A stretch of 64,000 nt of DNA from Fulvivirga sp. (GCA_965284555.1 OZ260091.1:1656139-1720138); one strand, 5' to 3'; positions 31,355-62,882 are shown, counted from the first letter of the stretch. The notes: generated from the sequence alone by a model not told the origin. Numbers and translations are program-made.

Positions 31355-31368
31355 CTGACAATAATCAA
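31355..31368. promoter_or_regulatory. Crp/Fnr-type box upstream of mlaE (divergent from DUF4136 gene)
   Basis: ctgac-aata-atcaa. Confidence 0.6.
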
Positions 31369-31415
31369 CTTTATTGATACCATAAACGGCTAATTTCATA
31401 TTCAAATTATAATCC

Positions 31416-32192
31416 ATGTTCGGGACTACTTATAAAAATTTAAAGGCATTTTTACTCGAAACGGGTGACATCTCTTTATTTATAGGTCGGTTTTTTAAAG
31501 AGGGATTTAAACCGCCTTTTGAGCTTAAAGAGTTACTCAAGCAATGCTACATGGTAGGCAATAAATCACTGCCATTGGTGGCTACAACTGGTTTTATTAT
31601 GGGTTTGGTACTTACCATTCAGACAAGGCCAACTTTGGTTGAATTTGGTGCGGAGTCGTGGATTCCCTCTATGATTGGCATTGCTATAGTCCGTGAAATC
31701 GGACCTGTTATTACGGCATTGATGTGCGCAGGCAGGGTTGGGTCAAGTATTGGCGCAGAGCTGGGATCCATGAAAGTTACCGAGCAAATTGATGCTATGG
31801 AGGTGTCAGGAACCAATCCTTTTAAGTTTTTAGTGGTAACTAAAGTAGTAGCTTGCACGCTTATGTTACCGGTTTTAGTGGTTTTTTCGGATATCATTTC
31901 ACTTTTGGGCTCTTATTTGGTGGAAAACCTGAAGGGAGAGGTGAGTTGGGAGCTGTATTTTAGAAACGTTTTTGCCTTTTTAAAATTTAGCGACATTATG
32001 CCGGCTTTTATCAAATCGTATTTCTTTGGTTTTGTAATTGGCATTGTAGGTTGCTATAAAGGCTACAATTCCAAAAAGGGGACGGAAGGTGTAGGTAAAG
32101 CAGCCAATACTGCTGTGGTTTTAGCTTCAATGCTAGTGTTTGTGGTAGATTTTGTTGCGGTATTAATTACTGATATTTTCTATGATTTATAA
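31416..32192 (+). CDS. mlaE: MlaE-family ABC permease (MCE system)
   Basis: REIGPVITALMCAGRVGSSIGAELGSMKVTEQIDAMEV; GTEGVGKAANTAVV. Confidence 0.9.
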   Translation: MFGTTYKNLKAFLLETGDISLFIGRFFKEGFKPPFELKELLKQCYMVGNKSLPLVATTGFIMGLVLTIQTRPTLVEFGAESWIPSMIGIAIVREIGPVITALMCAGRVGSSIGAELGSMKVTEQIDAMEVSGTNPFKFLVVTKVVACTLMLPVLVVFSDIISLLGSYLVENLKGEVSWELYFRNVFAFLKFSDIMPAFIKSYFFGFVIGIVGCYKGYNSKKGTEGVGKAANTAVVLASMLVFVVDFVAVLITDIFYDL

Positions 32193-32953
32193 TGCAAAAG
32201 ACTAAAACGATAAATTATGACGCGCCACCCGTGGTGAAAATAGAACAGTTGCATAAGCGATTTGGCGATAATGTGGTTTTGAAAGGTTTTAATCTCACGC
32301 TGTACGAAGGTGAAAGTGTGGCTATTTTAGGCAAGTCGGGCTCAGGCAAATCAGTGTTGATCAAATGCCTTATTGGACTGATTCCGTATGATTCAGGTTC
32401 CATGTTAGTGCTTGGTAAAGAAGTGGCTGATTTAAATCAACAAGAGTTGGACAATTTGCGAACAGATATAGGATTTTTGTTTCAGGGTAGTGCCTTGTAT
32501 GACTCTATGACGGTACGTGAAAATTTAGAATTTCCACTCCGCAGGCACCGAGAAACACTAAAAAACGGACAAACTGTAAAGGAAAAAGTAAAACAAGTAT
32601 TGTCTAGTGTGGGTCTATCAAATACTGAAGACCTTATGCCGGAAGAGCTTTCTGGGGGGATGAAAAAGAGGATAGCACTGGCACGCACGCTTATTATTAG
32701 CCCAAAGTTGATATTGTATGACGAGCCTACAAGTGGGCTCGACCCAATAACCACCCGTGAAATAAGCAGGCTTATTTTGCAAATTCAGAAGGAGTACTTT
32801 GCGTCATCCATTGTAATTACTCATGATGTAGATTGTGCAAAAATGGTAGCCGATAGATTGATCATATTAAATAATGGAATAAACTATGCCGAAGGATCTT
32901 ATGAAGAACTTTTCAAATCTAAAGACCCGGTAGTGAGCGCATTTTTTGCTTAA
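32192..32953 (+). CDS. mlaF: MlaF-family ABC ATPase
   Basis: GKSGSGKS, FQGSALYDSMTV, LSGGMKKR, YDEPTSGLDP. Confidence 0.9.
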   Translation: MQKTKTINYDAPPVVKIEQLHKRFGDNVVLKGFNLTLYEGESVAILGKSGSGKSVLIKCLIGLIPYDSGSMLVLGKEVADLNQQELDNLRTDIGFLFQGSALYDSMTVRENLEFPLRRHRETLKNGQTVKEKVKQVLSSVGLSNTEDLMPEELSGGMKKRIALARTLIISPKLILYDEPTSGLDPITTREISRLILQIQKEYFASSIVITHDVDCAKMVADRLIILNNGINYAEGSYEELFKSKDPVVSAFFA

Positions 32954-32963
32954 AATTAAAGCT

Positions 32964-33917
32964 ATGGAACGAAGTACAAATTATAAAGTAAAGCTGGGTG
33001 TATTTGTGGTAGTAGGACTTGCATTATTCACTGTTGGCGTCTATATGGTAGGAAAGGAGCAAAATCTATTTAGCAGAAATATAGCGCTATATGCCAAATT
33101 TAAGCAGGTAAATGGCTTACAGTCGGGCAGTAATGTGCGTTTTTCTGGTATAAACGTTGGGGCAGTAAGCAATATTGAAATAATTGATGATTCAACTATT
33201 TTGGTATCCATGGTCATTAAAGAAAGTGTTCAGCAATTTATAAAATTGGATGCGGTAGCCTCTATTGGCACTGATGGTTTAATGGGTAATATGCTGGTGA
33301 ATATAAGCCCTGGGGGCAATCAAACCCAATCAATTGAAGATGGTGGGTATTTAAGAACTTATGAGAAAGTACTAACCGAAGACATCATTAATACACTCAA
33401 CAGCTCAAACGAAAATCTGGCGGTATTGATTGAAGAACTGCTAGAAATAGCTCAAGGAGTAAACAAAGGCAAAGGCACGGTTGGGGTTTTGATGAAAGAC
33501 AGTTTGGTAGCAAATGATCTGAGACATGCAGTTAAAAACCTGAATTATACTACCATCAAAGCCGTCACTATTATAGAAAAAATGAATACAATGATGGATG
33601 ATTGGCAAAAAGGGGATGGACTTGTAAATGCCCTAATGACCGATACAGCCTATGTAACTAAAATTCAACAAACCTTTGAAAGTCTAGAAAAAGCAAGTAG
33701 CGAAATTCAACAGACCTCAACTCAATTAAACACTATGCTCGAACAGAAGCATTCTGACAATGCCTTAAACACCGTTTTACGGGATAGTATTTTCAATGCC
33801 AACCTGCAAAAAACTATGGTTGAAATAAAAGATGGTGCCACCAAGTTTAATGAAAATATGGAAGCCTTGCGTACCAATTGGTTTTTTAAGAAATTTTTTA
33901 AGAAGAAGAATAAGTAG
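32964..33917 (+). CDS. mlaD: MlaD/MCE-domain protein with long helical tail
   Basis: N-terminal TM, GLQSGSNVRFSGINVGAV, TDGLMGNMLVNISPG, then ~170 aa of helical repeats (track start is TTG 32946). Confidence 0.88.
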   Translation: MERSTNYKVKLGVFVVVGLALFTVGVYMVGKEQNLFSRNIALYAKFKQVNGLQSGSNVRFSGINVGAVSNIEIIDDSTILVSMVIKESVQQFIKLDAVASIGTDGLMGNMLVNISPGGNQTQSIEDGGYLRTYEKVLTEDIINTLNSSNENLAVLIEELLEIAQGVNKGKGTVGVLMKDSLVANDLRHAVKNLNYTTIKAVTIIEKMNTMMDDWQKGDGLVNALMTDTAYVTKIQQTFESLEKASSEIQQTSTQLNTMLEQKHSDNALNTVLRDSIFNANLQKTMVEIKDGATKFNENMEALRTNWFFKKFFKKKNK

Positions 33918-34225: not shown

Positions 34226-34239
34226 CTGACTTTCGTCAG
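34226..34239. promoter_or_regulatory. Crp/Fnr-type box upstream of dinB-hemN
   Basis: Perfect palindrome ctgac-tttc-gtcag; a second 1-mismatch site ttgac-caac-ttcaa at 34204-34217; TAnnTTTG -7 element tacttttg at 34262-34269. Confidence 0.7.
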
Positions 34240-52013: not shown

Positions 52014-53297
52014 ATGAGTACTCTAAAAATAGTGGAAGCTGCAGAGGCAGTGAGCCGCGTAAAATCTGGCGATCGAATATTTATACAAGGTGCAGCCATG
52101 ACACCAATCTTGCTTATCAATGAGTTGTGTAAGCGCTATAAGGAACTAGAGCATGTTAATCTGATTCACATGCATACCGAGGGAGAGGCATTATATACTA
52201 AATCTCCTTATAATCAGGCCTTTCGTTCGGTAAGCTGCTTTGTGGGCGGCAACGTGCGTGAGGCCGTAAATAATGGAAGTGGCGATTATATTCCGATTTT
52301 CTTGAGCGAAATTCATTTGCTTTTCAGACGCAATATTTTACCTCTCGATGTGGCCTTTATTCAAGTCTCACCACCAGATATCCACGGGTTTTGTTCTTTG
52401 GGTACATCCATTGATGTTACCATTCCAGCGATAGAAACTGCCAAATTGGTAATTGCCCAAATAAATAAATTTGTGCCACGCACCCATGGTGATGGCATTA
52501 TCCATATAAGTAAAATAAATTGTGCGGTTCAGGCCGATGTACCTTTGCATGCCACAGAGGTTAAAACACCCTCTGAAATTGAACTAAGTATTGGTAAGCA
52601 CGTAGCCGGACTTGTAGAAGATGGTGCTACATTACAGATGGGCATTGGTGGAATCCCAAATGTGGTATTGGACAATCTTGTTAATCATAAACATTTGGGT
52701 ATCCATACCGAAATGTTCTCCGATGGTATTCTGAAATTAGTAGAAAAAGGAATAATCACTGGTGAGAAAAAGAAGATAAAGCCCGGTAAAATAGTGAGTT
52801 GCTTTGCCATTGGCTCTCAAAAGCTATATGATTTTATGGATGATAATCCGCTGATACACTTTAAAGAGGCTTCATTCACCAATGATACAGCTATCATTAG
52901 GCTCAATCCTAAAGTTACAGCTATCAACAGCGCTATTGAAATTGACCTAACAGGACAGGTTTGTGCCGATACAATTGGCATGTATCAGTTTTCTGGTGTA
53001 GGTGGCCAAATGGATTTTATAAGAGGGGCCTCATTATCAGAAGGTGGCAAAGCAATTATTGCCATGCCTTCTATTACCAATAAGGGGGAATCTAAGCTCG
53101 TATCAATGCTAAAGCCTGGAGCAGGAGTTACCACTACGAGAGCACATGTTCATTATGTAGCCACCGAGCACGGGGTTGTAGATTTATATGGAAAAAGCTT
53201 GAAACAAAGGGCAAGGGCATTAATATCCATAGCGCATCCAAACCATCAAGAGCAATTAGAAAAAGAAGCATTTGCCAGATTTAAGGTTCAGATTTAA
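52014..53297 (+). CDS. Acetyl-CoA hydrolase/CoA-transferase family protein
   Basis: LQMGIGGIP, GIHTEMFSDG, EIDLTGQVCAD, SGVGGQMDF and VATEHG. Confidence 0.9.
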   Translation: MSTLKIVEAAEAVSRVKSGDRIFIQGAAMTPILLINELCKRYKELEHVNLIHMHTEGEALYTKSPYNQAFRSVSCFVGGNVREAVNNGSGDYIPIFLSEIHLLFRRNILPLDVAFIQVSPPDIHGFCSLGTSIDVTIPAIETAKLVIAQINKFVPRTHGDGIIHISKINCAVQADVPLHATEVKTPSEIELSIGKHVAGLVEDGATLQMGIGGIPNVVLDNLVNHKHLGIHTEMFSDGILKLVEKGIITGEKKKIKPGKIVSCFAIGSQKLYDFMDDNPLIHFKEASFTNDTAIIRLNPKVTAINSAIEIDLTGQVCADTIGMYQFSGVGGQMDFIRGASLSEGGKAIIAMPSITNKGESKLVSMLKPGAGVTTTRAHVHYVATEHGVVDLYGKSLKQRARALISIAHPNHQEQLEKEAFARFKVQI

Positions 53298-53475: not shown

Positions 53476-53489
53476 CTGATAAGGGTCAT
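53476..53489. promoter_or_regulatory. Crp/Fnr-type box upstream of yceI-barrel operon
   Basis: ctgat-aagg-gtcat. Confidence 0.65.
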
Positions 53490-53540
53490 AAAATACCTTC
53501 CAATAGACCCATAATATTGTGTAGCCAAACAAAGAAAGTT

Positions 53541-54107
53541 ATGAAAAAGCTAACCTTAATATTCTTAATCATTAGTGCCACGGTACAAACTACCATGGCT
53601 CAATCTTATCAACTAGATTCAAAAAACTCTACGCTTGAAGTACTAGGTACTTCAACGCTTCACGATTGGGAAATTGTGGCTGAAGAGTTGGCAGGTAATG
53701 CCACCATAACTAAAGCCGAAGAAGCTCTTTCCATTGACAAGCTCAACTTTGAAGTAAATGTAAAGGGACTAAAAAGTGGAAAGAGTGCGATGGATAACAA
53801 CACCTATGAAGCACTAAAAAGTAAAAGCTTTCCCAAAATTACTTATGTGCTTACCAAAGTGCTTTCTGCCAACAAAGTAGGAGCTACTTACAATTTGGAA
53901 ACTACGGGAAAACTCACTATTGCTGGTTATACTAAAACAATGAATTTGCCAGTAAAAGCAGAGGTAATGGGTAATCAGGTGGTTTTTACAGGCAAGGTCA
54001 CCTTCAATATGACAGATTTTAAAGTTGATCCACCTACAGCTCTATTGGGAACAGTAAAAACAGGTGATGAAATTACAATTCAATTCAAAACAAAATTCAT
54101 TCAATAA
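53541..54107 (+). CDS. YceI-family lipid/polyisoprenoid-binding periplasmic protein
   Basis: Signal peptide; GTSTLHDW, LKSGKSAMDNNTYEAL, GKLTIAG and MTDFKVDPP (track start is TTG 53517). Confidence 0.88.
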   Translation: MKKLTLIFLIISATVQTTMAQSYQLDSKNSTLEVLGTSTLHDWEIVAEELAGNATITKAEEALSIDKLNFEVNVKGLKSGKSAMDNNTYEALKSKSFPKITYVLTKVLSANKVGATYNLETTGKLTIAGYTKTMNLPVKAEVMGNQVVFTGKVTFNMTDFKVDPPTALLGTVKTGDEITIQFKTKFIQ

Positions 54108-54128
54108 TAACTTATAAACTACAATAAA

Positions 54129-55412
54129 ATGAAAACTTCATTAAAAATCGGAATCGCTGCTATATTGCTGGGCACAGCACTTAGTGGATATGCTCAAGAA
54201 AGAAGAGCTTTACAATACGACAGAATGCCAGGTAAAGATGGTATTAATGTATTCGAAACTTCAAAAGAAGATACCGTTGGATATGACGGATTAAGAGTGA
54301 GAGTGGGTGGTGATTTTGCCATGCAGTTTCAAGGTATCACCCAAGGAAATGATTTAGGAAGCTTGGCCAAACTAGGCAAAAACTTAAACTTACCAACAGC
54401 CAATTTGAATATTGATGTGCAGTTAGAAGATGGTCTTAAAATGCACTTACGTACCTACTTGTCTGCCAGACACCACGAAGAATCTTGGGTAAAAGGCGGT
54501 CACATTCAAATGGATAAGTTAGACTTTATTAAACCAGGGTTATTGGCAGGCTTTATGGAAATAGCCACCATAAGAGTTGGTTTAGATGAGTTTAATTACG
54601 GTGACGCACACTTTAGAAGAACTGATAACGCCCGTGCTATTTACAATCCTTTTGTAGCTAACTATATCATGGATGCCTTCTCTACAGAGGCATTTGCTGA
54701 AATTAACTTACAAAAAAATGGACTTTTGGCTGTGTTAGGAGTAAGTAATGGTAAACTCAACCAAAACGTGGTGGTTAACGACAATACCGATAACAAGGTA
54801 TCTTTCTTTGGTAAACTTGGTATCGATAAAAAGTTAGATGATGACACTAGAGTAAGACTTACCGGATCTTGGTACATCAACAAAGGTACTACTACAGGTA
54901 CTTGGTTATATGGTGGCGACCGAGGTGGATCTAGATACTATGGAGTACTGCATACAAGAGATGAAATTGCCGCTGGTACTGCTAGTGACTTTGAAGGTAG
55001 ATTAAACGCACGCTTTACAGAAATCACCGCCATTCAAATCAACCCATTCATTCAAAAAGGTGGACTTGAGTTCTTCGGTATCTACGAAGTGGCCTCTGGT
55101 AGTGCTGAAGGCAATGACGGTAAATATACACAATTGGCTGGTGAGGTGCTCTACAGATTTGGAGGCTGGGATCAGTTCTTTGCAGGTACAAGATACAACA
55201 CTGTAAAAGGTGCCCCAGTTGATGGCGCTCCTGACCGTGAAATTCAACGCTTCAACATTGGTGGTGGTATGTTCTTAACCAAAAATGTAATGATGAAAAT
55301 GGAGTATGTAAGCCAAAAATATGAAGGTGATGGATGGAATGGTGTATCTGCCGGTAAATATGTTGGCGCGAGTTTTGAAGGAATCAACATAGAAGCAGTA
55401 ATAGGTTTCTAA
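54129..55412 (+). CDS. Uncharacterised outer-membrane beta-barrel protein
   Basis: Signal peptide (…SGYAQ), alternating amphipathic beta strands, BAM-type C-terminus INIEAVIGF; 427 aa, too short for a TonB-dependent receptor. Confidence 0.75.
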   Translation: MKTSLKIGIAAILLGTALSGYAQERRALQYDRMPGKDGINVFETSKEDTVGYDGLRVRVGGDFAMQFQGITQGNDLGSLAKLGKNLNLPTANLNIDVQLEDGLKMHLRTYLSARHHEESWVKGGHIQMDKLDFIKPGLLAGFMEIATIRVGLDEFNYGDAHFRRTDNARAIYNPFVANYIMDAFSTEAFAEINLQKNGLLAVLGVSNGKLNQNVVVNDNTDNKVSFFGKLGIDKKLDDDTRVRLTGSWYINKGTTTGTWLYGGDRGGSRYYGVLHTRDEIAAGTASDFEGRLNARFTEITAIQINPFIQKGGLEFFGIYEVASGSAEGNDGKYTQLAGEVLYRFGGWDQFFAGTRYNTVKGAPVDGAPDREIQRFNIGGGMFLTKNVMMKMEYVSQKYEGDGWNGVSAGKYVGASFEGINIEAVIGF

Positions 55413-55442
55413 TTAAAGAAGCAGTAATAGGTTTCTAATTAA
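55391..55442. repeat. Perfect 26-bp tandem duplication spanning the barrel-gene stop codon
   Basis: agaagcagtaataggtttctaattaa at 55391-55416 and 55417-55442. Confidence 0.9.
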
Positions 55443-55460
55443 AATAAAATCAAAAGAAAC

Positions 55461-55493
55461 AGAGACCGCTCGAAAGGGTGGTCTCTTTTTTTA
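55461..55493 (+). terminator. Intrinsic terminator
   Basis: agagaccgct / ggtggtctct followed by a T-run. Confidence 0.75.
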
Positions 55494-55808
55494 TTTGTAA
55501 TTGTCATGTCCGTAAATCAAGTTACACACAATGTGAAGGTTTATTCTATACAGAAAAGTGCCTTTATCAATTTCTTGATAGCCTGGTAGGAATCATTAAT
55601 GATATATGTACAACTCTCCGGAGCAGGCTTATCAGTCATTTTGTATTCAGAAATTTTTTATGTCTTTAGGCAAAGCCCATTTGCTCCGTAGTTTTAAGGG
55701 TATTCCAACCATGTTGTTAAACCGGACAAAAATCAGGTTTTAGACCATCAAATATCATCCATTTCCTTTCAATCTTTTAGCAATTTTAGTTAACAAAACA
55801 GCAAGGTC

Positions 55809-56612
55809 ATGGCACTACACGCAAGTAAATTTCACAGGCCAATGGCTCTCAGGGTAGTAGAGCATAAGCAGCCTAAACAAAAGTTGGTAAAATTTTGGGA
55901 TGAGGCCAAGCTCTTTAATGACCTCAACGCCATAAAAATTGCAAAGAGAAAGGCGGCCGTAGCCTGGGCTCCCACTATTATGAGTATAGGTGTTTTCTTA
56001 AGTTTAGCATTTGTAGTGTTAATATTTGAATGGCGTACTTATGAGAAGGCACCCATTGTTAACCTAATGCAAACAAGTATAATAGAAGAAGATTTTTTGG
56101 ATATACCTCCAACACAACAACCACCACCAGAAGTAAAAGTTCTCCAACAACCTAATATTGTTGAAGTTAAAGATGTAGAGGAGATTATAGAGGAAATAAA
56201 AGTCGACTTTGACCTAGAAATAACTGAAGACGCAATTATTGAAATGCAAGAGGTTATCGACCAAGAAAAGCCTGAAGAAGAGGCTGCTGATGAAGTTTTT
56301 ACCATTGTAGAAGTGGCTCCTGCACCTAAGAATGGTCTGCAAAATTTCTTTTCATACATATACCAAAACATCAATTACCCACGCAAAGCCATCAATGCCC
56401 AAGTACAAGGTAAAGTCTTTGTTCAGTTTGTTGTAAACGCAGACGGTACACTGGTAGATTTTGAAGTGGTGAAGGGTATTGGTATGGGCTGCGATGAAGA
56501 GGCCGTGAGAGTACTTCAAAGTGCACCTGCATGGAATCCAGGCAAGCAACGTGGTAAACCAGTGCGGGTCCGCATGATTTTACCAATAAACTTTATTATT
56601 CGTGAGAAGTAA
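55809..56612 (+). CDS. tonB: Energy transducer TonB
   Basis: TM ending IFEW, Pro-rich PPTQQPPP spacer, C-domain YPRKAINAQVQGKVFVQFVV..WNPGKQRGKPVRV; degenerate box cggac-aaaa-atcag at 55723-55736. Confidence 0.88.
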   Translation: MALHASKFHRPMALRVVEHKQPKQKLVKFWDEAKLFNDLNAIKIAKRKAAVAWAPTIMSIGVFLSLAFVVLIFEWRTYEKAPIVNLMQTSIIEEDFLDIPPTQQPPPEVKVLQQPNIVEVKDVEEIIEEIKVDFDLEITEDAIIEMQEVIDQEKPEEEAADEVFTIVEVAPAPKNGLQNFFSYIYQNINYPRKAINAQVQGKVFVQFVVNADGTLVDFEVVKGIGMGCDEEAVRVLQSAPAWNPGKQRGKPVRVRMILPINFIIREK

Positions 56613-56682
56613 ATGTAGGGTTGAAATCCTAGTCCTAATTCTTATAGAACAAGACAATTATTAGGAACTGAAGTCACAAAGG

Positions 56683-56712
56683 GCAGATAGCATCTTGGCT
56701 ATCTGCTTTTTA
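56683..56712. terminator. Bidirectional terminator
   Basis: gcagatagc / gctatctgc followed by tttt, between convergent tonB and yceI2. Confidence 0.7.
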
Positions 56713-57291
56713 TTTCATACTAATTTTTAGATTTAACTCAACGAAAATCGTTTCGTTCACTTTAATCAAACCCATCATAGCGGTAGGAGGGTCAATTCCA
56801 AATTCTTTAATATCAAATTCTGATTTGAAATTTATATGAAATGATTTAGCATCGATTGGTAAAACTTCATACTTCAAAAAATACTTGTTGGTTTTACCGG
56901 CTATGGTAATCAGGGTTTCAGCTCTAGAATCATTAAAATCGATGGGATCGAAATTTTCAATATTTAAAAGTTGAAAATGCATAAAAGGAAATTTTTCACC
57001 TTTCAGCGTTTTTTTCATATCGCGAGTAATATAATTACTCTCACAATCAAATTTTTCTACGGTAAGGCTAAATTTTGTATTGTCAAAAGATATAAAACCA
57101 TCTTTTGCTTCATAACAAACACTCAACTGTTCTCCACAAAAGCCTTCTACTATTCTACAGTCAAATTCATTTACGTTGGATACTCCACTTAACCTAAAGC
57201 TACTTTCTGGCTCAATAATTACCATTGTGGTAGTTTGGGCAAAAGCAATACTTGGCACTAGTAATGAGAGAGAAACAAGGATTGATTTCAT
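56710..57291 (-). CDS. Second YceI-family protein (two conserved-looking Cys)
   Basis: Signal peptide; GVSNVNEFDC, FDCESNYITRDMKKTL, ITIAG and FGIDPPTAMMGLIKV. Confidence 0.8.
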   Translation of the reverse strand: MKSILVSLSLLVPSIAFAQTTTMVIIEPESSFRLSGVSNVNEFDCRIVEGFCGEQLSVCYEAKDGFISFDNTKFSLTVEKFDCESNYITRDMKKTLKGEKFPFMHFQLLNIENFDPIDFNDSRAETLITIAGKTNKYFLKYEVLPIDAKSFHINFKSEFDIKEFGIDPPTAMMGLIKVNETIFVELNLKISMK

Positions 57292-57343
57292 AATATTTGG
57301 TCGTTAAATCAACCAAATTTGACACTTATAAGTTCAAATAAAT

Positions 57344-57357
57344 ATGACGGCAATCAG
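57344..57357. promoter_or_regulatory. Crp/Fnr-type box upstream of yceI2
   Basis: atgac-ggca-atcag, 53 nt before the minus-strand ATG. Confidence 0.65.
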
Positions 57358-57379: not shown

Positions 57380-58453
57380 TTAACGAGCAAAATGCCACTT
57401 TTGTATTTTTTTGAGCTTCTCCAAGTCTTTAATCACTATTTTGCCCCCATTTGACTCAATGATATTTTCATCTTTTAAATCTGATAACACTCTAATGACC
57501 GATTCGGTAGCTGTCCCTACCAAGTTCGACAGATCATCCCTAGATACTTTTATGCCATTAAGATCAGATTCTTTTTCTTTAAATTTTTCGTAAATAGTAA
57601 GCAAAGCCCCCGCTGTTCTTTGCCTTACAGAATTGTAAGCCAAATCAATTAGTGCTTGTTCTTTTTCTTCAATATTATTAGATAGTAGCTGAATAAATTT
57701 TTTGGCCACCTCCCTGTTAGAGTAAAGCAACTCGAAGAAGTCAATTTTAGGTATTTGAATTATATGGGTGTCTTCTATGGCTTCTGCAGAGTCTAAATGT
57801 TCTGTTTCTTTTAGTAAGGCCTCATATCCAAAATATTCTCCATTAGTGTATATACCCGTTATCAGCTCCTTTCCGTCTTCATTGGTTTTTATGGTTTTTA
57901 CCTTCCCCTTTTCAACCAAATAAAGGTGATTGGCATAATCTCCTTCTCTAAATATTTCATTTTTCTTTTTGAATAACCGAGAGCGGTGGCCTGAATTTAG
58001 ACTCTCCAGATTGTGGAGTTTTTGCACATCGGTGATAAAATTATTCAATCCGTCAGAATCATTTTGATAATCCTTTTTTAAGGCATCAACCTTTCTTAGT
58101 CGCGATTCAATAGCATCTAAAAGCTCTGTATCATCAAATGGCTTTGTTAAATAATCATCAGCACCAAGAGCCATACCCTTGCGCATATCCGAGCGTTCAG
58201 CCTTAGCCGTAAGAAAAATAAAGGGAATTGTAGCAGTTGATTCTTTTTTTGATAGGATATGTAATACTCCATAGCCGTCAAGCTCAGGCATCATAATATC
58301 ACAAATAATTAAATCAGGATTGGCTGACATGGCCATTTCAACTCCCTTTTTGCCATTCTCAGCCAAAATAGGCTCATAGTCGGCCAGGGTCAAAATTTCA
58401 CCTATATTCTCCCTAATTTCTGTGTTATCTTCAATAATTAGTACTTTTCTCAT
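57380..58453 (-). CDS. Hybrid response regulator: REC + cNMP-binding + Crp HTH
   Basis: IIEDN, LIICDIMMP (phospho-Asp), LTKPF; FREGDYANHLY..GEYFG; HTH SRDDLSNLVGTATESVIR. Confidence 0.9.
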   Translation of the reverse strand: MRKVLIIEDNTEIRENIGEILTLADYEPILAENGKKGVEMAMSANPDLIICDIMMPELDGYGVLHILSKKESTATIPFIFLTAKAERSDMRKGMALGADDYLTKPFDDTELLDAIESRLRKVDALKKDYQNDSDGLNNFITDVQKLHNLESLNSGHRSRLFKKKNEIFREGDYANHLYLVEKGKVKTIKTNEDGKELITGIYTNGEYFGYEALLKETEHLDSAEAIEDTHIIQIPKIDFFELLYSNREVAKKFIQLLSNNIEEKEQALIDLAYNSVRQRTAGALLTIYEKFKEKESDLNGIKVSRDDLSNLVGTATESVIRVLSDLKDENIIESNGGKIVIKDLEKLKKIQKWHFAR

Positions 58454-59703
58454 AATGGTAATGTCACAATAAAGGTGGTGCCTTCATTAACTTTACTGAT
58501 AAAATTAATAGACCCACTTAGCATTTCAATATATTTTTTCACAATATTTAAACCCAGACCAGTTCCTTGAATATTGGTAGCGTTTTTTGCTCTAAAAAAA
58601 CGTTCGAAGAGGTGCTTTTGCTCTTGCTCCGGTATTCCCATTCCTTTATCAATGATTTCGAAAACGAGTTTGTGATTATCAGCCTTTAAATTAAACGTGA
58701 TTGTTTTATTCTCATCAGAATATTTAATGGCATTGGACATTAAATTGATAATAATATTTTTGAGTAGCTTGTTATCAGATTTAATCATCAACGACTCTAT
58801 ATTTTTGGAGAATTGAATTTTTTGGCCACTTTTCAAGAGAGGTTCCATTTCACCCATCACAGTTTTGGCAAGCTCCACAACTTCAAATTCACACGTTGTC
58901 AATTCTATTTTACCTTCTTCAAGTTTTGCCAATGAAAGAAAATCATTCAAAATGTTATTTAAGTTGCTAATAGAAGATTTTATTTTTTCAACGTGGGAGA
59001 GTCTTTTTTCAGTTGTTCCCGGCTCATTGTATTTAGCAATCAGCGAAGCTGAAGATAAAATTGTACTTAATGGAGTTCTAAACTCATGACTAGCCATGGA
59101 GACAAATCGCGATTTTAACTCATTGAGCTCTCGTTCTTTTTCTAAGGCTATGCGGGCATCCTCTTCGGCCTTTTTTCTTACTTCAACTTGCTCATTAAGG
59201 TCAATATTGGCCTTTTCTAATTGAGCAATGGTTTTATCTAATTCTTTTGTTCTCTCGCTTACCCTGTTTTCCAATTCGGTAGCATATACAATTAACTGTT
59301 CTTCGCTTTTGCGTAAGGCTTCTTCAATCAACTTTCTTTCCGAAATGTTGATGATAAAAGCTACCGTATGATATTTGCCATTAAGAATTGCCTGGTTTAA
59401 ACTTACCTCTACCGGAAATTCTTCACCACTTTTTTTAACAGCCAATAAATCACGGCCTTTCCCCATCACTCTGGGGTGTGGGTTTTTATGATAATTAGCC
59501 CTATGATGAACATGAATTTTGCGTAAGGGAGTGGGCACCAGCATATCAATAGAAACTCCATTCATTTCTTCATCTTCATAACCAAAGAGCTTTTTAGCAG
59601 ATTTATTGGCCAGTACAATTAGCCCAATATCATCTACAACCAAAATTCCTTCTTCACAGGCTTCAAAAATGGCTTCGTAAGTAGGGGTGTTAGATGCTGT
59701 CAT
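58450..59703 (-). CDS. Cytoplasmic PAS histidine kinase with a FixL-like heme-PAS domain
   Basis: LVPTPLRKIH..Y..PRVMGKGRDLLAVKKSGEEFPVEVSL; ASHEFRTPL; NLMSNAIKYS, DKGMGI and GTGLGL; no TM segments. Confidence 0.88.
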   Translation of the reverse strand: MTASNTPTYEAIFEACEEGILVVDDIGLIVLANKSAKKLFGYEDEEMNGVSIDMLVPTPLRKIHVHHRANYHKNPHPRVMGKGRDLLAVKKSGEEFPVEVSLNQAILNGKYHTVAFIINISERKLIEEALRKSEEQLIVYATELENRVSERTKELDKTIAQLEKANIDLNEQVEVRKKAEEDARIALEKERELNELKSRFVSMASHEFRTPLSTILSSASLIAKYNEPGTTEKRLSHVEKIKSSISNLNNILNDFLSLAKLEEGKIELTTCEFEVVELAKTVMGEMEPLLKSGQKIQFSKNIESLMIKSDNKLLKNIIINLMSNAIKYSDENKTITFNLKADNHKLVFEIIDKGMGIPEQEQKHLFERFFRAKNATNIQGTGLGLNIVKKYIEMLSGSINFISKVNEGTTFIVTLPL

Positions 59704-59715
59704 GTTGCTAAAATA

Positions 59716-59729
59716 ATGATAAAAATCAG
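59716..59729. promoter_or_regulatory. Crp/Fnr-type box between divergent kinase and USP genes
   Basis: atgat-aaaa-atcag. Confidence 0.65.
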
Positions 59730-59799: not shown

Positions 59800-60228
59800 A
59801 TGTCTACAAAGAAGGTTTTATTTCCAACAGATTTCACCCGAGAATCGCTTAAATGCATGAAAGAGGCTATAGCCCACTGCGAACAGACTGGCGCAGAACT
59901 TATCGTTTTATATACTTACCGACTTATTAAACCTTTGGGCAATACAATGATGAGTACTACTTCTATTAAGCGAGAATTAGATGATCGTGCCAAACGGAAA
60001 TTTGAGGAGATAAGGGAGCAATATTTTAAGGATACACCTGTGCCATATCAATTATTGTCAGAAGTAGGATTTATGCTTGATAGAGTCGCCTATCATATTG
60101 AACACCAAAATATTGATCAAATTCTTATTTGTGATGGCATTTATCAACAATTAAAATCAAATATGGTGGTAGATAAGCAAGGCAAAAAAATGCTCAACAG
60201 GCGTCCGGTGGAGTTATTATCTGCCTAA
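59800..60228 (+). CDS. Universal stress protein (USP domain, degenerate)
   Basis: KVLFPTDFT..A...GAELIVLY N-terminus; 142 aa; lacks a clear G-x2-G-x9-G(S/T) motif. Confidence 0.75.
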   Translation: MSTKKVLFPTDFTRESLKCMKEAIAHCEQTGAELIVLYTYRLIKPLGNTMMSTTSIKRELDDRAKRKFEEIREQYFKDTPVPYQLLSEVGFMLDRVAYHIEHQNIDQILICDGIYQQLKSNMVVDKQGKKMLNRRPVELLSA

Positions 60229-60311: not shown

Positions 60312-62882
60312 ATGACTAGAATTTTGGTATCGCTTTTCTTCTTTATTTCTACTTTTTCGTTTGCTGATGTCGACAGCCTCGAAAATGTATTAAATAAAAC
60401 GATAAACCCTCGCGATAAAGTTATTATTTACAATTTATTGGCCAATGAATATTGGCATTCTAATACCACACGAGCGATGCTTTGCTCAGACTCGGCCTAT
60501 TCATTAGCGCTTAAACATGATATAAAAGGGCAAGATTTATTAGATGCGATTGTGAATAAAGGTATTACAGCCTACACCTTAGGGCAATATTTTGAAGCTT
60601 CTAATTTTTATAACCAAGCAATCAAATTAGCCATAGATTCTGATTTACGCCCTTACACCTACGTGGAACTTCAATTCAACCTTTTAAGAAAGCAAGGGGC
60701 GTATAAGCAAATTATTCAAAAAGTAGATTCTATTTTGAAATTTGACCAGAATGTAGCCGATTTCAAAGATAAGTTTTTGAACATAAAAGTGGTGGCTCAC
60801 ATTGATTTAGGTCAAGCTATAGAAGCAGGTGAGTTAATAAGGTCGTTGGAAAAGCAGGATTCACTCAATATTGCGCAGAGTTCTTTCAATTTAACAAAAG
60901 CTTCCTATTACAACATTGTTGGTAATTATGATCAAGCAATCAGTATTTTAGATAGCACACTAATAATCTACCAAAATCAAGGAGATTCGCTTGAAATGGC
61001 CAAAGTTTTCAAGCAAATGGCGCTTACTTATCTTCTTCAGGGTCAATACGATAAAGTACTTACCTTTAGTAATAATGCATTAGAAATTTACACCAAAGCA
61101 AACTATCCATACGGTATAGCACAAGCCTATTATGTACTGGGTTCATTATATGCAGAAATGGGAAAGAATGAGCTGGCTGTTGAATATTATTATAAAGCAC
61201 TTCCAATATATGAAAGTCAAACAAATAAAAAGGAGCTGGCTTTAACTTATAATGATCTTGCTTATTTATATGCAAGGCAAGACAAATCAAAGGCATTTGA
61301 ATATCTCAATAAGTCAATAAATATCTCTAGAAAAATAGGGGACCTAAACACAGAAGGTACCTCGTTTAATTTTATGGGGATATTTTTTGATCAACTTAAA
61401 AAATATGATAGTGCCATTTGGGCATATAATAAGTCAATTTCACTAAGGCAAAGTATCAACTATGAGCGTGGCGTTGCCGCTGTTGAGTTTAATAAGGGTT
61501 CCATCTATGAAAAATTGGGAGATTATGACAAGGCAATTGCCTTATATCTAAGAAGTTACGAAGTAGATACGAGAATTGGAAATGTGATTGGGATGGCTAT
61601 TAGTGAGTATTATTTAGGAGGCCTTATGACCAAAATGAAAAAATTTGCAGAGGCTAAAATCTATTTTGATAAGGCATTAAAAAAATTACGAGATAGAAAG
61701 GCTAATGTCTATCTCATAGAATGCCTGCAAAAAGTAGCCACGTATTATGAGGCCATCAATGATGCACCACAAGCACTCAAATATTATAAGGAATATATTG
61801 CACTAAAAGAAACGGTTTTTAACCTAGAAACGGAAATCAGATTGGCGGAGTTAGAAGAACGTGCAGAATTGGACAAGAAAAATAAGGAAATTGAAATTTT
61901 AAATTTAGCCAATAAGAACCGTCAACAGGATATTCTTATCCAAGAGAAAACAATTGCTAATCAGCGCTTTTTGATAGGATTTATAAGTTTTGGCATTGTT
62001 AGTGTTTCGCTTTTGCTCCTAATAACTTTCAGGTTATTAAAAATAAGAAGTAAAACCAATAAGCAACTCGAAAAGCTCAATAGGGAAATTACTGAGCAAG
62101 CTGAGGAGATCACTGCTCAAGCAGAAGAGCTCAAAGAAGCTAATGAAGAAATTTCATTACTCAATGAAGGATTGGAAGCCACTGTTAGTCGCAGAACAAA
62201 CGAGCTCAAATTGGCAAAGAAGGAATTGGATACCTTCTTTTACCATGCCTCACACGATTTTAGAAGACCTCTTACTACATTTTTAGGATTAGCAGAGATT
62301 GCACAATCTATTTTAGATGATCCTAAGGCACTTGAACTATTTGATAAGGTACGCGAAACAGCCGGAAGCCTAGATAGAATGGTATCAAAATTAAAGGCCA
62401 TCAGTATTATTGGTTTTGAGAAAAACAAATTTTCTGATATTGATATGCTGGCCTTAATCAATGCTATATTGGCCAAACAAAAAACACTGATTAATCAAAG
62501 TAAAATAGAAGTCCGGCTTAATATTCAAGCCACGCATTATTACTCATCATATGACTTGGTGGAGATCATTTTAGAAAATCTAATCGAAAATGCCGTATTA
62601 TATAGCGATTTACACAAACAATCATGGATTTCAATTGCAAATAGTCAATATGCAAATAAGTTATTGATTACAGTCAGTGATAACGGACAGGGTATTGATG
62701 ATAGCCTGACACCGCGCATATTTGATATGTACTACAGGGCGAATGAAGCTTCTCAAGGAAATGGACTTGGTTTGTACATAGCTAAAATGGCCACTGAAAA
62801 ACTAAAAGGGGAAATCACCTTCGAAACTAAGCTCGGGGAGGGGACAATTTTTACAATTAAGTTGCCCAATACCGAAAAGTAA
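60312..62882 (+). CDS. TPR-containing membrane sensor histidine kinase
   Basis: Signal peptide, periplasmic TPRs, TM (FLIGFISFGIVSVSLLLLI), ASHDFRRPL, NLIENA, DNGQGI and GNGLGL. Confidence 0.9.
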   Translation: MTRILVSLFFFISTFSFADVDSLENVLNKTINPRDKVIIYNLLANEYWHSNTTRAMLCSDSAYSLALKHDIKGQDLLDAIVNKGITAYTLGQYFEASNFYNQAIKLAIDSDLRPYTYVELQFNLLRKQGAYKQIIQKVDSILKFDQNVADFKDKFLNIKVVAHIDLGQAIEAGELIRSLEKQDSLNIAQSSFNLTKASYYNIVGNYDQAISILDSTLIIYQNQGDSLEMAKVFKQMALTYLLQGQYDKVLTFSNNALEIYTKANYPYGIAQAYYVLGSLYAEMGKNELAVEYYYKALPIYESQTNKKELALTYNDLAYLYARQDKSKAFEYLNKSINISRKIGDLNTEGTSFNFMGIFFDQLKKYDSAIWAYNKSISLRQSINYERGVAAVEFNKGSIYEKLGDYDKAIALYLRSYEVDTRIGNVIGMAISEYYLGGLMTKMKKFAEAKIYFDKALKKLRDRKANVYLIECLQKVATYYEAINDAPQALKYYKEYIALKETVFNLETEIRLAELEERAELDKKNKEIEILNLANKNRQQDILIQEKTIANQRFLIGFISFGIVSVSLLLLITFRLLKIRSKTNKQLEKLNREITEQAEEITAQAEELKEANEEISLLNEGLEATVSRRTNELKLAKKELDTFFYHASHDFRRPLTTFLGLAEIAQSILDDPKALELFDKVRETAGSLDRMVSKLKAISIIGFEKNKFSDIDMLALINAILAKQKTLINQSKIEVRLNIQATHYYSSYDLVEIILENLIENAVLYSDLHKQSWISIANSQYANKLLITVSDNGQGIDDSLTPRIFDMYYRANEASQGNGLGLYIAKMATEKLKGEITFETKLGEGTIFTIKLPNTEK

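Follow-up and report, generated by a model that had tools for sequence, protein, structure and literature searches.

A porin paired with two YceI-like lipocalins as a candidate low-oxygen envelope module in Fulvivirga and other Bacteroidota

What would an outer membrane barrel be doing between two secreted lipocalins, and why would these genes carry the same regulatory signal as genes for respiration? These questions are raised by a locus in Fulvivirga sp. that lies within a stretch of 64,000 nucleotides (GCA_965284555.1 OZ260091.1:1656139-1720138). We refer to that whole stretch as the window, and coordinates below are positions in it unless a contig is named. Two genes for YceI-like proteins, yceI-A and yceI-B, here flank a gene for a barrel protein and a tonB gene, and to our knowledge the physiological role of YceI proteins has been unclear since their first structures in 2004. 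A preliminary description of the locus had read the four genes as an envelope-spanning path for hydrophobic cargo. All four exist as it claimed, with YceI and TonB domains matched and the barrel motifs present, and the explanation that we favor for them is a different one: a module of the hypoxia regulon in which a substrate-selective porin has two periplasmic lipocalin carriers docked at its inner mouth. We give this explanation about an even chance of being correct. Its parts are of known kinds, and what is new is that a dedicated porin family occurs in constant association with two YceI clades, together with fusions between them and a conserved box.

The core of the locus is compact. The gene yceI-A (53541..54107, forward strand) encodes a secreted YceI-like lipocalin (PF04264, 1.1e-18). 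Its longest open reading frame, 53517..54107, runs from a TTG at 53517, and the likely start is the ATG at 53541, giving a product that begins MKKLTL and carries a type I signal peptide without a lipobox Cys. The barrel gene (54129..55412, forward strand) begins 21 bp 3' of yceI-A and encodes a protein of 427 residues with a signal peptide and a C-terminal Phe, in which the motifs RHHEESWVKGG and YGDAHFRRTDNA occupy residues 114-124 and 157-168. An intrinsic terminator with an 11-bp stem and a T run (55461..55496, forward strand) closes this unit, and a hairpin with a T run also stands 3' of the CoA-transferase gene upstream of yceI-A; yceI-A and the barrel gene thus form a two-gene operon in the window, and tonB is separate, with its own 400-bp leader. 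The second lipocalin gene, yceI-B (56710..57291, reverse strand), is inverted and has its own box, and its secreted, divergent YceI-like product carries an invariant Cys pair, C45/C83. The last codons and the stop of the barrel gene fall in a 26-bp perfect tandem duplication (55391-55442; …GAAGCAGTAATAGGTTTCTAATTAA, twice), which looks like a recent slippage event whose second copy is non-coding and leaves the barrel C-terminus unaltered.

Is this arrangement particular to one genome? We clustered all neighboring open reading frames within 6-kb flanks of the barrel gene at 80 loci from different genomes, of which 78 are not truncated by the end of a contig. At 64 of these 78 informative loci a YceI gene stands immediately 5' of the barrel gene on the same strand, mostly across a gap of 12-34 bp. 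In a tree of the YceI proteins, a long branch parts clade A, which holds yceI-A of the window and 61 of the 64 upstream genes, from clade B, whose 42 genes include yceI-B of the window, all 27 immediate-downstream genes on the same strand and 5 immediate-downstream genes on the opposite strand. A clade B gene, whose divergence from clade A is ancient, is present at approximately 41 loci. The two clades are therefore sorted by position, and the module consists of YceI-A, the porin and YceI-B. Three metagenome-assembled genomes (MAGs) from Bacteroidales (L038, L047, L053) have the order YceI–YceI–barrel, which indicates that the trio survives rearrangement.

Natural fusions tie the two kinds of protein together more closely still. 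These proteins, of 697-747 residues, run from a signal peptide through a YceI domain and a Pro/Ala-rich linker of about 130 residues into the barrel, with no second signal peptide. They make up at least 13 clusters at 90% identity, with mutual identity down to 46%, and one, on a 16-kb contig, is a called gene with an exact translation. Only fusions of this type (P0155) are genuine; an apparent 980-residue fusion in another genome (G344) is an artefact of an open frame running upstream in GC-rich DNA, where the true gene begins with a signal peptide of its own. A barrel with an even number of strands has both termini in the periplasm, and the fusions thus tether a YceI domain to the periplasmic face of the porin. 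Outside the Bacteroidota, an unfused YceI–barrel pair lies on a Gemmatimonadaceae contig beside two universal stress protein (Usp) genes and genes for a CBS and a PAS protein, and an Ignavibacteriota MAG contributes one related locus. The synteny, the two YceI clades and the fusions bear out the part of the preliminary description that grouped the barrel with both YceI proteins as a genuine functional unit. Among the literature that we searched on YceI or polyisoprenoid-binding proteins with porins or Bacteroidota, we found no description of such a module.

What kind of barrel is it? By sequence it has no match in Pfam (E <= 0.01) or NCBIfam, nor in the PDB by phmmer or by profile, and among 25 diverse members of the family the only porin models matched at E <= 1 were BBP2 (one member, 2e-4) and BBP2_2 (one member, 0.018). 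Its homologues are nonetheless numerous: about 6,000 scored matches at 60-89% identity come from Cytophagales, Flavobacteriales, Saprospirales and other groups, annotated at most as 'porin', and an exhaustive search gives 583 clusters at 50% identity. In an even sample of Bacteroidota the barrel is present in 111 of 401 genomes and 58 of 180 genera. The AlphaFold model (pLDDT 71, pTM 0.73) has 16 strands, with residues 24-56 ahead of strand 1. A Foldseek search with this model, the check that the preliminary description had proposed, places OprP (2o4v, E 1.2e-12, TM 0.53-0.55) and OprO first, followed by OmpT, Omp32, PorB, OmpF and OmpC, and the best 50 matches are all porins. The earlier statement that the barrel belongs to no recognisable family thus stands for its sequence and falls for its fold, which is that of a classical 16-stranded porin. 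This is a porin family with no Pfam model and, in the literature searched, no published description.

Conservation within the family speaks to what kind of porin it may be. On the strands of 102 sequences, lumen-facing polar positions are conserved at 0.80 and lipid-facing positions at 0.64 (p = 1.6e-9). The most conserved segment (0.85) is the 27-residue loop between strands 5 and 6, which is the classical site of loop 3 (L3) and holds YGDAHFRRTDNA; the least conserved are the surface loops L6-L8 (0.37-0.43). From its length and high conservation, L3 probably folds inward. There are 11 invariant Arg residues and several Lys, many of them facing the lumen, with acidic residues about as numerous, and the HH pair at residues 115-116 is near-invariant together with nearby acidic residues, even in homologues at 26-56% identity. 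A conserved lumen and L3 beside variable L6-L8 loops form the signature of a substrate-selective, water-filled channel rather than of a TonB-gated or laterally opening hydrophobic one. The claim that the barrel is a channel for hydrophobic cargo therefore does not hold, the fold being like that of OprP and OmpF and the lumen polar, charged and conserved. We also rejected two specific identities for the barrel. A TonB-dependent transporter would have 22 strands, an N-terminal plug and a TonB box, where the barrel has 427 residues, 16 strands and no Plug or TonB_dep_Rec match in Pfam; a FadL, OmpW or TodX channel would have 8 or 14 strands and a hatch or lateral opening, and none of these proteins is among the best 50 Foldseek matches.

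The structural relatives of the barrel allow a closer comparison. The phosphate and pyrophosphate porins OprP and OprO of P. aeruginosa (2o4v, 4rjw), the best structural matches (E ~1e-12), share with it 16 strands, a similar length (411-426 versus 427 residues), an N-terminal periplasmic extension and many conserved lumen-facing basic residues. However, identity is only 11-12%, the barrel has no match to Porin_O_P (PF07396) or any other Pfam family, and the near balance of basic and acidic residues in its lumen leaves an anion specificity like theirs unproven. Their partnerships differ as well, as OprP and OprO go with a PstS-type binding protein under the Pho regulon, whereas the barrel goes with lipocalins under an FNR-type box. 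The barrel also has the general features of trimeric porins, judged from the model and sequence together: OmpF, OmpC, PorB and Omp32 are likewise barrels of 16 antiparallel strands that end in an aromatic residue and have a long loop joining strands 5 and 6. A DEFNYGD motif in the strand 5–6 loop of the barrel is reminiscent of PEFGG. In contrast to them, the barrel has dedicated partner genes, and its conservation across orders of Bacteroidota (60-79% identity) is unusually high for a porin.

The two YceI proteins stand apart from the rest of their family. YceI-A scores 68.4 bits against PF04264 and YceI-B 25.5 bits, barely above the gathering cut-off of 23.7 bits, while three canonical YceI paralogues elsewhere in the genome score about 160 bits each. 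Given this distance, the transfer of a polyisoprenoid ligand to YceI-A and YceI-B by homology is weak. The fold of YceI-B is clearer. An AlphaFold model based on 25 orthologues (pLDDT 82.7) has the eight-stranded, lipocalin-like extended barrel of the YceI fold, and its best 21 Foldseek matches are all YceI structures. The polyisoprenoid-binding proteins 1wub, 2x32 and 2x34 are among the matches. By TM-score the closest is BcnA (0.67/0.79), with E. coli YceI at 0.66/0.75. YceI-A and YceI-B are secreted and soluble like BcnA, BcnB, E. coli YceI, TT1927b and HP1286. The invariant Cys pair of clade B looks like a structural disulfide. In YceI-A the conserved residues include one His and no Cys or Met cluster, and thus no conserved set of metal ligands.

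The usual partner of BcnA and YceI is a cytochrome b561, YceJ or LcoA (PMC9113575), in whose place a porin is found here. We detected no PF01292 match in the genome, which is 99.75% complete, and no cytochrome b561 among the recurrent neighbor clusters. In this respect the module differs from the BcnA–LcoA–PsrA system of lipid-peroxyl detoxification (PMC9113575), which has a linked cytochrome b561 gene.

We turn to the regulatory signal. The preliminary description had claimed a box for each yceI gene, and both are true sites of the palindrome TGAY-N4-RTCA: TGATAAGGGTCA at 53477-53488, centered 58.5 bp 5' of the yceI-A ATG, and TGATTGCCGTCA on the strand of yceI-B at 57345-57356, 59.5 bp 5' of its ATG. 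The window holds 14 such FNR/Crp-type boxes where 4.15 are expected, a number reached in 0 of 100 shuffles. Nine lie 26-99 bp 5' of the start codons of ccoI, mlaE, a dinB-hemN operon, ric, the nos leader, ccoN, yceI-A, yceI-B and usp, and those of ccoI, mlaE, the nos leader, ccoN, both yceI genes and usp lie at 53-99 bp. Since the boxes of ccoI, mlaE and nos stand at the same distance from their start codons as those of the yceI genes (about 58 bp), we infer activation of the module under low oxygen or nitric oxide. In enterobacteria, yceJ-yceI and exbB are among the genes with like expression across several species according to oxygen availability, and yceI is assigned to the FnrS regulon (PMC3792023). 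A scan for sigma-70 promoters gave 9 sites against 14 expected, with a model that differs from the promoters of Bacteroidota.

The box recurs with the module in other genomes. It lies within -200 to +60 of the YceI start in 36 of 63 other YceI–barrel operons, compared with 42 of 366 (11%) same-locus genes that have an upstream gap of more than 80 bp, an odds ratio of 10.3 whose p-value makes the association look too strong, because related genomes are not independent. Where a zinc-type alcohol dehydrogenase gene lies upstream of YceI, a box precedes that gene in 6 of 11 cases. YceI-B genes have a box of their own in 0 of 38 cases when they lie downstream of the barrel gene, and have one only where they are inverted, in the window and in L009-L011, which is the pattern expected if co-regulation is under selection. 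At the Gemmatimonadaceae locus there is no TGAY-N4-RTCA box upstream of YceI, and the link to the box is thus specific to Bacteroidota. The earlier claim that both yceI genes and the barrel are co-regulated is upheld, through a box common to the cbb3, nos and usp genes. Across the whole genome there are 413 boxes, 68 of them intergenic (a twofold enrichment), and the targets include four Usp genes (three outside the window), a globin, a P-type ATPase and a short-chain dehydrogenase/reductase (SDR).

A candidate for the factor that binds the box is encoded beside the module, at 57380..58453 on the reverse strand. By its domain matches this protein is a hybrid regulator with REC, cNMP-binding and HTH_Crp domains, and it stands beside the module at 10 loci. 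Its gene overlaps by 4 nt that of a soluble PAS histidine kinase (58450..59703, reverse strand), and a further box (59717..59728) lies between the kinase gene and the divergent usp gene (59800..60228, forward strand), a member of the box regulon. The preliminary description had suggested looking for co-occurrence of the barrel, YceI and the REC-Crp regulator. The association with YceI holds at the 64 of 78 loci given above. The regulator, the PAS kinase and a Usp gene lie within 6 kb at 10-13 of the 80 loci, which belong to several families, and this too supports the description. Directly 5' of yceI-A, a gene of the acetyl-CoA hydrolase/transferase family (52014-53297) occupies a position that it also has at six other loci (cluster c13), and it may be a further conserved member of the low-oxygen stimulon. 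In Flavobacteriales the neighbors of the module are a zinc-type alcohol dehydrogenase, a ribosome hibernation factor, peroxiredoxin, OsmC, Zip and VIT1.

Some features of the wider set of boxes are observations in their own right. Many boxes, including that of tonB, are followed directly by nGTTTT (for example TGACAAAAATCA-aGTTTTA), as at 34227, 37720 and 55724 in the window and at loci L009, L025 and L056, which points to a longer recognition element, or to a promoter element overlapping the box, that is specific to the regulon. About ten intergenic boxes fall in a second island of approximately 34 kb elsewhere in the genome (C1:1340557-1374000) with genes for a Usp, an SDR, a CDP-alcohol phosphatidyltransferase, a DUF6799 protein and a P-type cation ATPase. 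The globin gene (2514128-2514559 in genome coordinates) and further Usp genes are preceded by boxes, several of them by two boxes 22 bp apart.

From these features we propose a mechanism. Its core is a conserved three-gene envelope module of yceI-A, a dedicated 16-stranded porin and yceI-B, with TonB excluded. The FNR/Crp-type box, at activator distance, would turn the module on together with the genes for the cbb3 oxidase, nitrous oxide reductase, hemN, ric, globin and Usp, making it part of a low-oxygen, and possibly also nitric oxide, stimulon. The porin would form a water-filled, substrate-selective channel; its lumen-facing residues and its L3 constriction loop are the most conserved. Both YceI proteins would sit at the periplasmic mouth of the porin, where they would serve as carriers or sinks of a small ligand, amphipathic or hydrophobic, and this ligand may enter or leave through, or at, the porin. 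The logic would be that of a specific porin with a periplasmic binding protein, lipocalins taking the place of the binding protein. LamB–MalE, OprP–PstS and CymA–CymE each pair a substrate-selective outer membrane channel with a soluble periplasmic binder at the level of the operon. Compared with these systems, the module has binders of lipocalin fold, two of them and diverged, which are sometimes fused to the barrel, and it has no conserved cognate ABC importer.

Several points weigh against this proposal. The barrel model is of only moderate confidence, with the L2 and L3 motifs below a pLDDT of 50. No upstream YceI is present at 14 of the 78 loci, and in several metal resistance islands a Cys/His-rich protein of 139 residues replaces YceI on both sides of the barrel, so the porin can work with other partners or alone. 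The neighbor clusters of the 80 loci include no conserved inner membrane transporter. Long isoprenoid chains are poorly suited to passage through a classical porin lumen, and the link between the substrate of the porin and the ligand of YceI is conjecture. Physical docking of YceI on the porin and the function of YceI as a carrier are likewise only inferred, and induction by low oxygen is predicted from the position of the box and from the genes that share it. A more ambitious version of the proposal makes the module an outer membrane trafficking device. In it, a dedicated porin trimer, induced by hypoxia, would dock two lipocalin carriers for an isoprenoid, a lipid or another amphipathic molecule. 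These would connect the outer membrane or the exterior with the periplasm or the inner membrane by a route that needs none of Lpt, Lol, Mla or TonB and is shared by Bacteroidota, Gemmatimonadota and Ignavibacteriota. We are doubtful of this version and consider it rather unlikely.

The alternatives differ in how much of the module they keep. The preliminary description held that TonB energises an envelope-spanning path from the barrel through YceI to MlaEFD, importing or exporting quinones, isoprenoids or heme for microaerobic or nitrous oxide respiration. It draws on the polyisoprenoid-binding proteins among solved YceI structures, and on the boxes that control tonB and the genes of an accessory MlaEFD paralogue in the window and in close relatives. 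The tonB gene (55809..56612, forward strand) encodes an N-terminal transmembrane helix, a Pro/Glu-rich spacer and a TonB_C domain (PF03544, 1.2e-19), and as had been claimed its box is degenerate (GGACAAAAATCA at 55724..55735, one base off consensus, followed by GGTTTTA and about 80 bp 5' of tonB); the orthologues in L009 and L025 have perfect boxes. It had also been noted correctly that no TonB-dependent receptor is nearby, the 856-residue open reading frame at 60312 being a TPR histidine kinase. TonB (cluster c50) lies beside the module at only 3 of the 80 loci, however, in the window, one other Fulvivirga and Marivirga atlantica; about nine TonB_C paralogues are encoded in the genome, and the porin, of 16 strands, has neither a plug nor the domains of a TonB-dependent receptor. 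TonB is a co-regulated neighbor and not a conserved part of the module. The accessory mlaEFD (31356-33917) encodes an MlaE 33% identical to the housekeeping MlaE (G000:709088), and a box precedes 6 of its 6 closest orthologues in the genus (L110-L115), 0 of 8 genes of the next paralogue group and 0 of 15 housekeeping copies. The MlaE family occurs in 39 of 111 barrel-positive (35%) and 89 of 290 barrel-negative (31%) genomes, by a crude threshold that takes in the paralogue group without a box, and it is almost missing from the barrel-richest family. With no phyletic association, MlaEFD is a genus-level accessory and not an obligatory partner. The module does resemble the OmpC/OmpF–MlaA–MlaC–MlaFEDB system in its trimeric-type porin, soluble carrier for hydrophobic ligands and, in this genus, MCE transporter under the same box, but it has no homology to MlaA or MlaC, and across the phylum the barrel and the MlaE paralogue show no co-occurrence. 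As the conserved polar lumen also argues against passage of long-chain isoprenoids, we regard the TonB-energised path as very improbable. A real possibility, if an unlikely one, is that porin and YceI are co-regulated and otherwise independent. The porin, induced by hypoxia, would then serve the diffusion of small hydrophilic solutes (anionic electron acceptors, fermentation acids or phosphate-like anions, for example), and may be likened to the anaerobically induced OmpW of E. coli and OmpS38 of Shewanella, while the YceI proteins would sequester lipophilic toxins or peroxidised lipids in the manner of BcnA. The similarity to the anion-specific OprP and OprO, the invariant Arg and Lys of the lumen, the 14 loci and the second barrel copy of the genome that lack YceI, and the rank of BcnA as the best match of YceI-B by TM-score all favor this explanation, as do the zinc-type alcohol dehydrogenase, peroxiredoxin and OsmC genes of Flavobacteriales; two reports document porins under FNR or Crp control (PMC4886647, PMC4585640). 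Against it, the orientation-keeping synteny of two YceI clades with one porin family across phyla and the recurrent fusions are hard to explain without a partnership, the three canonical YceI paralogues could carry out general sequestration, and the cytochrome b561 that defines BcnA's partnership was not found in the genome.

Metal handling is a further alternative, and one that we judge improbable. A metal ion or metal–thiolate species would pass selectively through the porin, with YceI or the Cys/His-rich (HYC-type) protein as periplasmic partner, and the metal would be copper for cbb3 and NosZ, or mercury, zinc or cadmium in resistance islands. Seventeen of the 80 loci do lie in integrase-flanked metal islands with ArsR, a CsoR-type regulator, MerT, a MerA-like reductase, HMA domains and a CzcA-type RND pump; these islands are closely related mobile elements, so the 17 loci are not independent observations, and most loci have no metal genes at all. 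In the Czc-type islands, the Cys/His-rich protein flanks the barrel on one or both sides in the position that YceI has elsewhere. Zip and VIT1 transporters beside the module in Flavobacteriales, the placement of the window's module among the copper enzyme genes nos and cbb3, and the HH pair of the barrel with its nearby acidic residues would also fit a metal substrate. The YceI proteins fit less well, given the lack of a conserved metal-ligand set in YceI-A and the apparently structural nature of the Cys pair in YceI-B.

The islands themselves have a recurring composition. The Cys/His-rich protein (cluster c2, L016-L080) is secreted, has 139 residues with the pattern THYCGG…HCGM…KPCCENE, and has no Pfam match. 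The second barrel paralogue of this genome (64% identity) lies outside the window in a metal-type island without YceI (G000:C1:1446000-1461000, L007), whose order is integrase, ArsR, MerT-HMA, a 134-residue protein, the barrel, a 144-residue protein, an RND pump of 1274 residues and OEP. Its operon has the box TGACATACATCA with the TGTTTT extension, about 105 bp 5' of the reading frame for the 134-residue protein, and near-identical islands occur in Marivirga, Cyclobacterium, Imperialibacter and Reichenbachiella. Between the MerT-like genes of mercury islands lies a conserved secreted protein of 278 residues with no Pfam match (cluster c17; L019, L020, L022, L027, L028, L079, L080). It is beta-barrel-like, starts with GHGPL after the signal peptide and ends with SYWL, and may be a second outer membrane component of these islands.

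Overall, the pairing of a dedicated porin with two YceI clades makes the question of YceI function directly testable, by providing a fixed outer membrane partner, natural fusions, and a regulatory signal shared with cbb3, nitrous oxide reductase, Usp and globin genes. The repeated capture of the module by mercury and Czc resistance islands suggests a role in envelope-stress tolerance. Should the lipocalins indeed take up or release cargo at the porin, amphipathic molecules would have a new way across the Gram-negative envelope, and the module would be a marker of the hypoxia response in the environmentally important Bacteroidota that reduce nitrous oxide.

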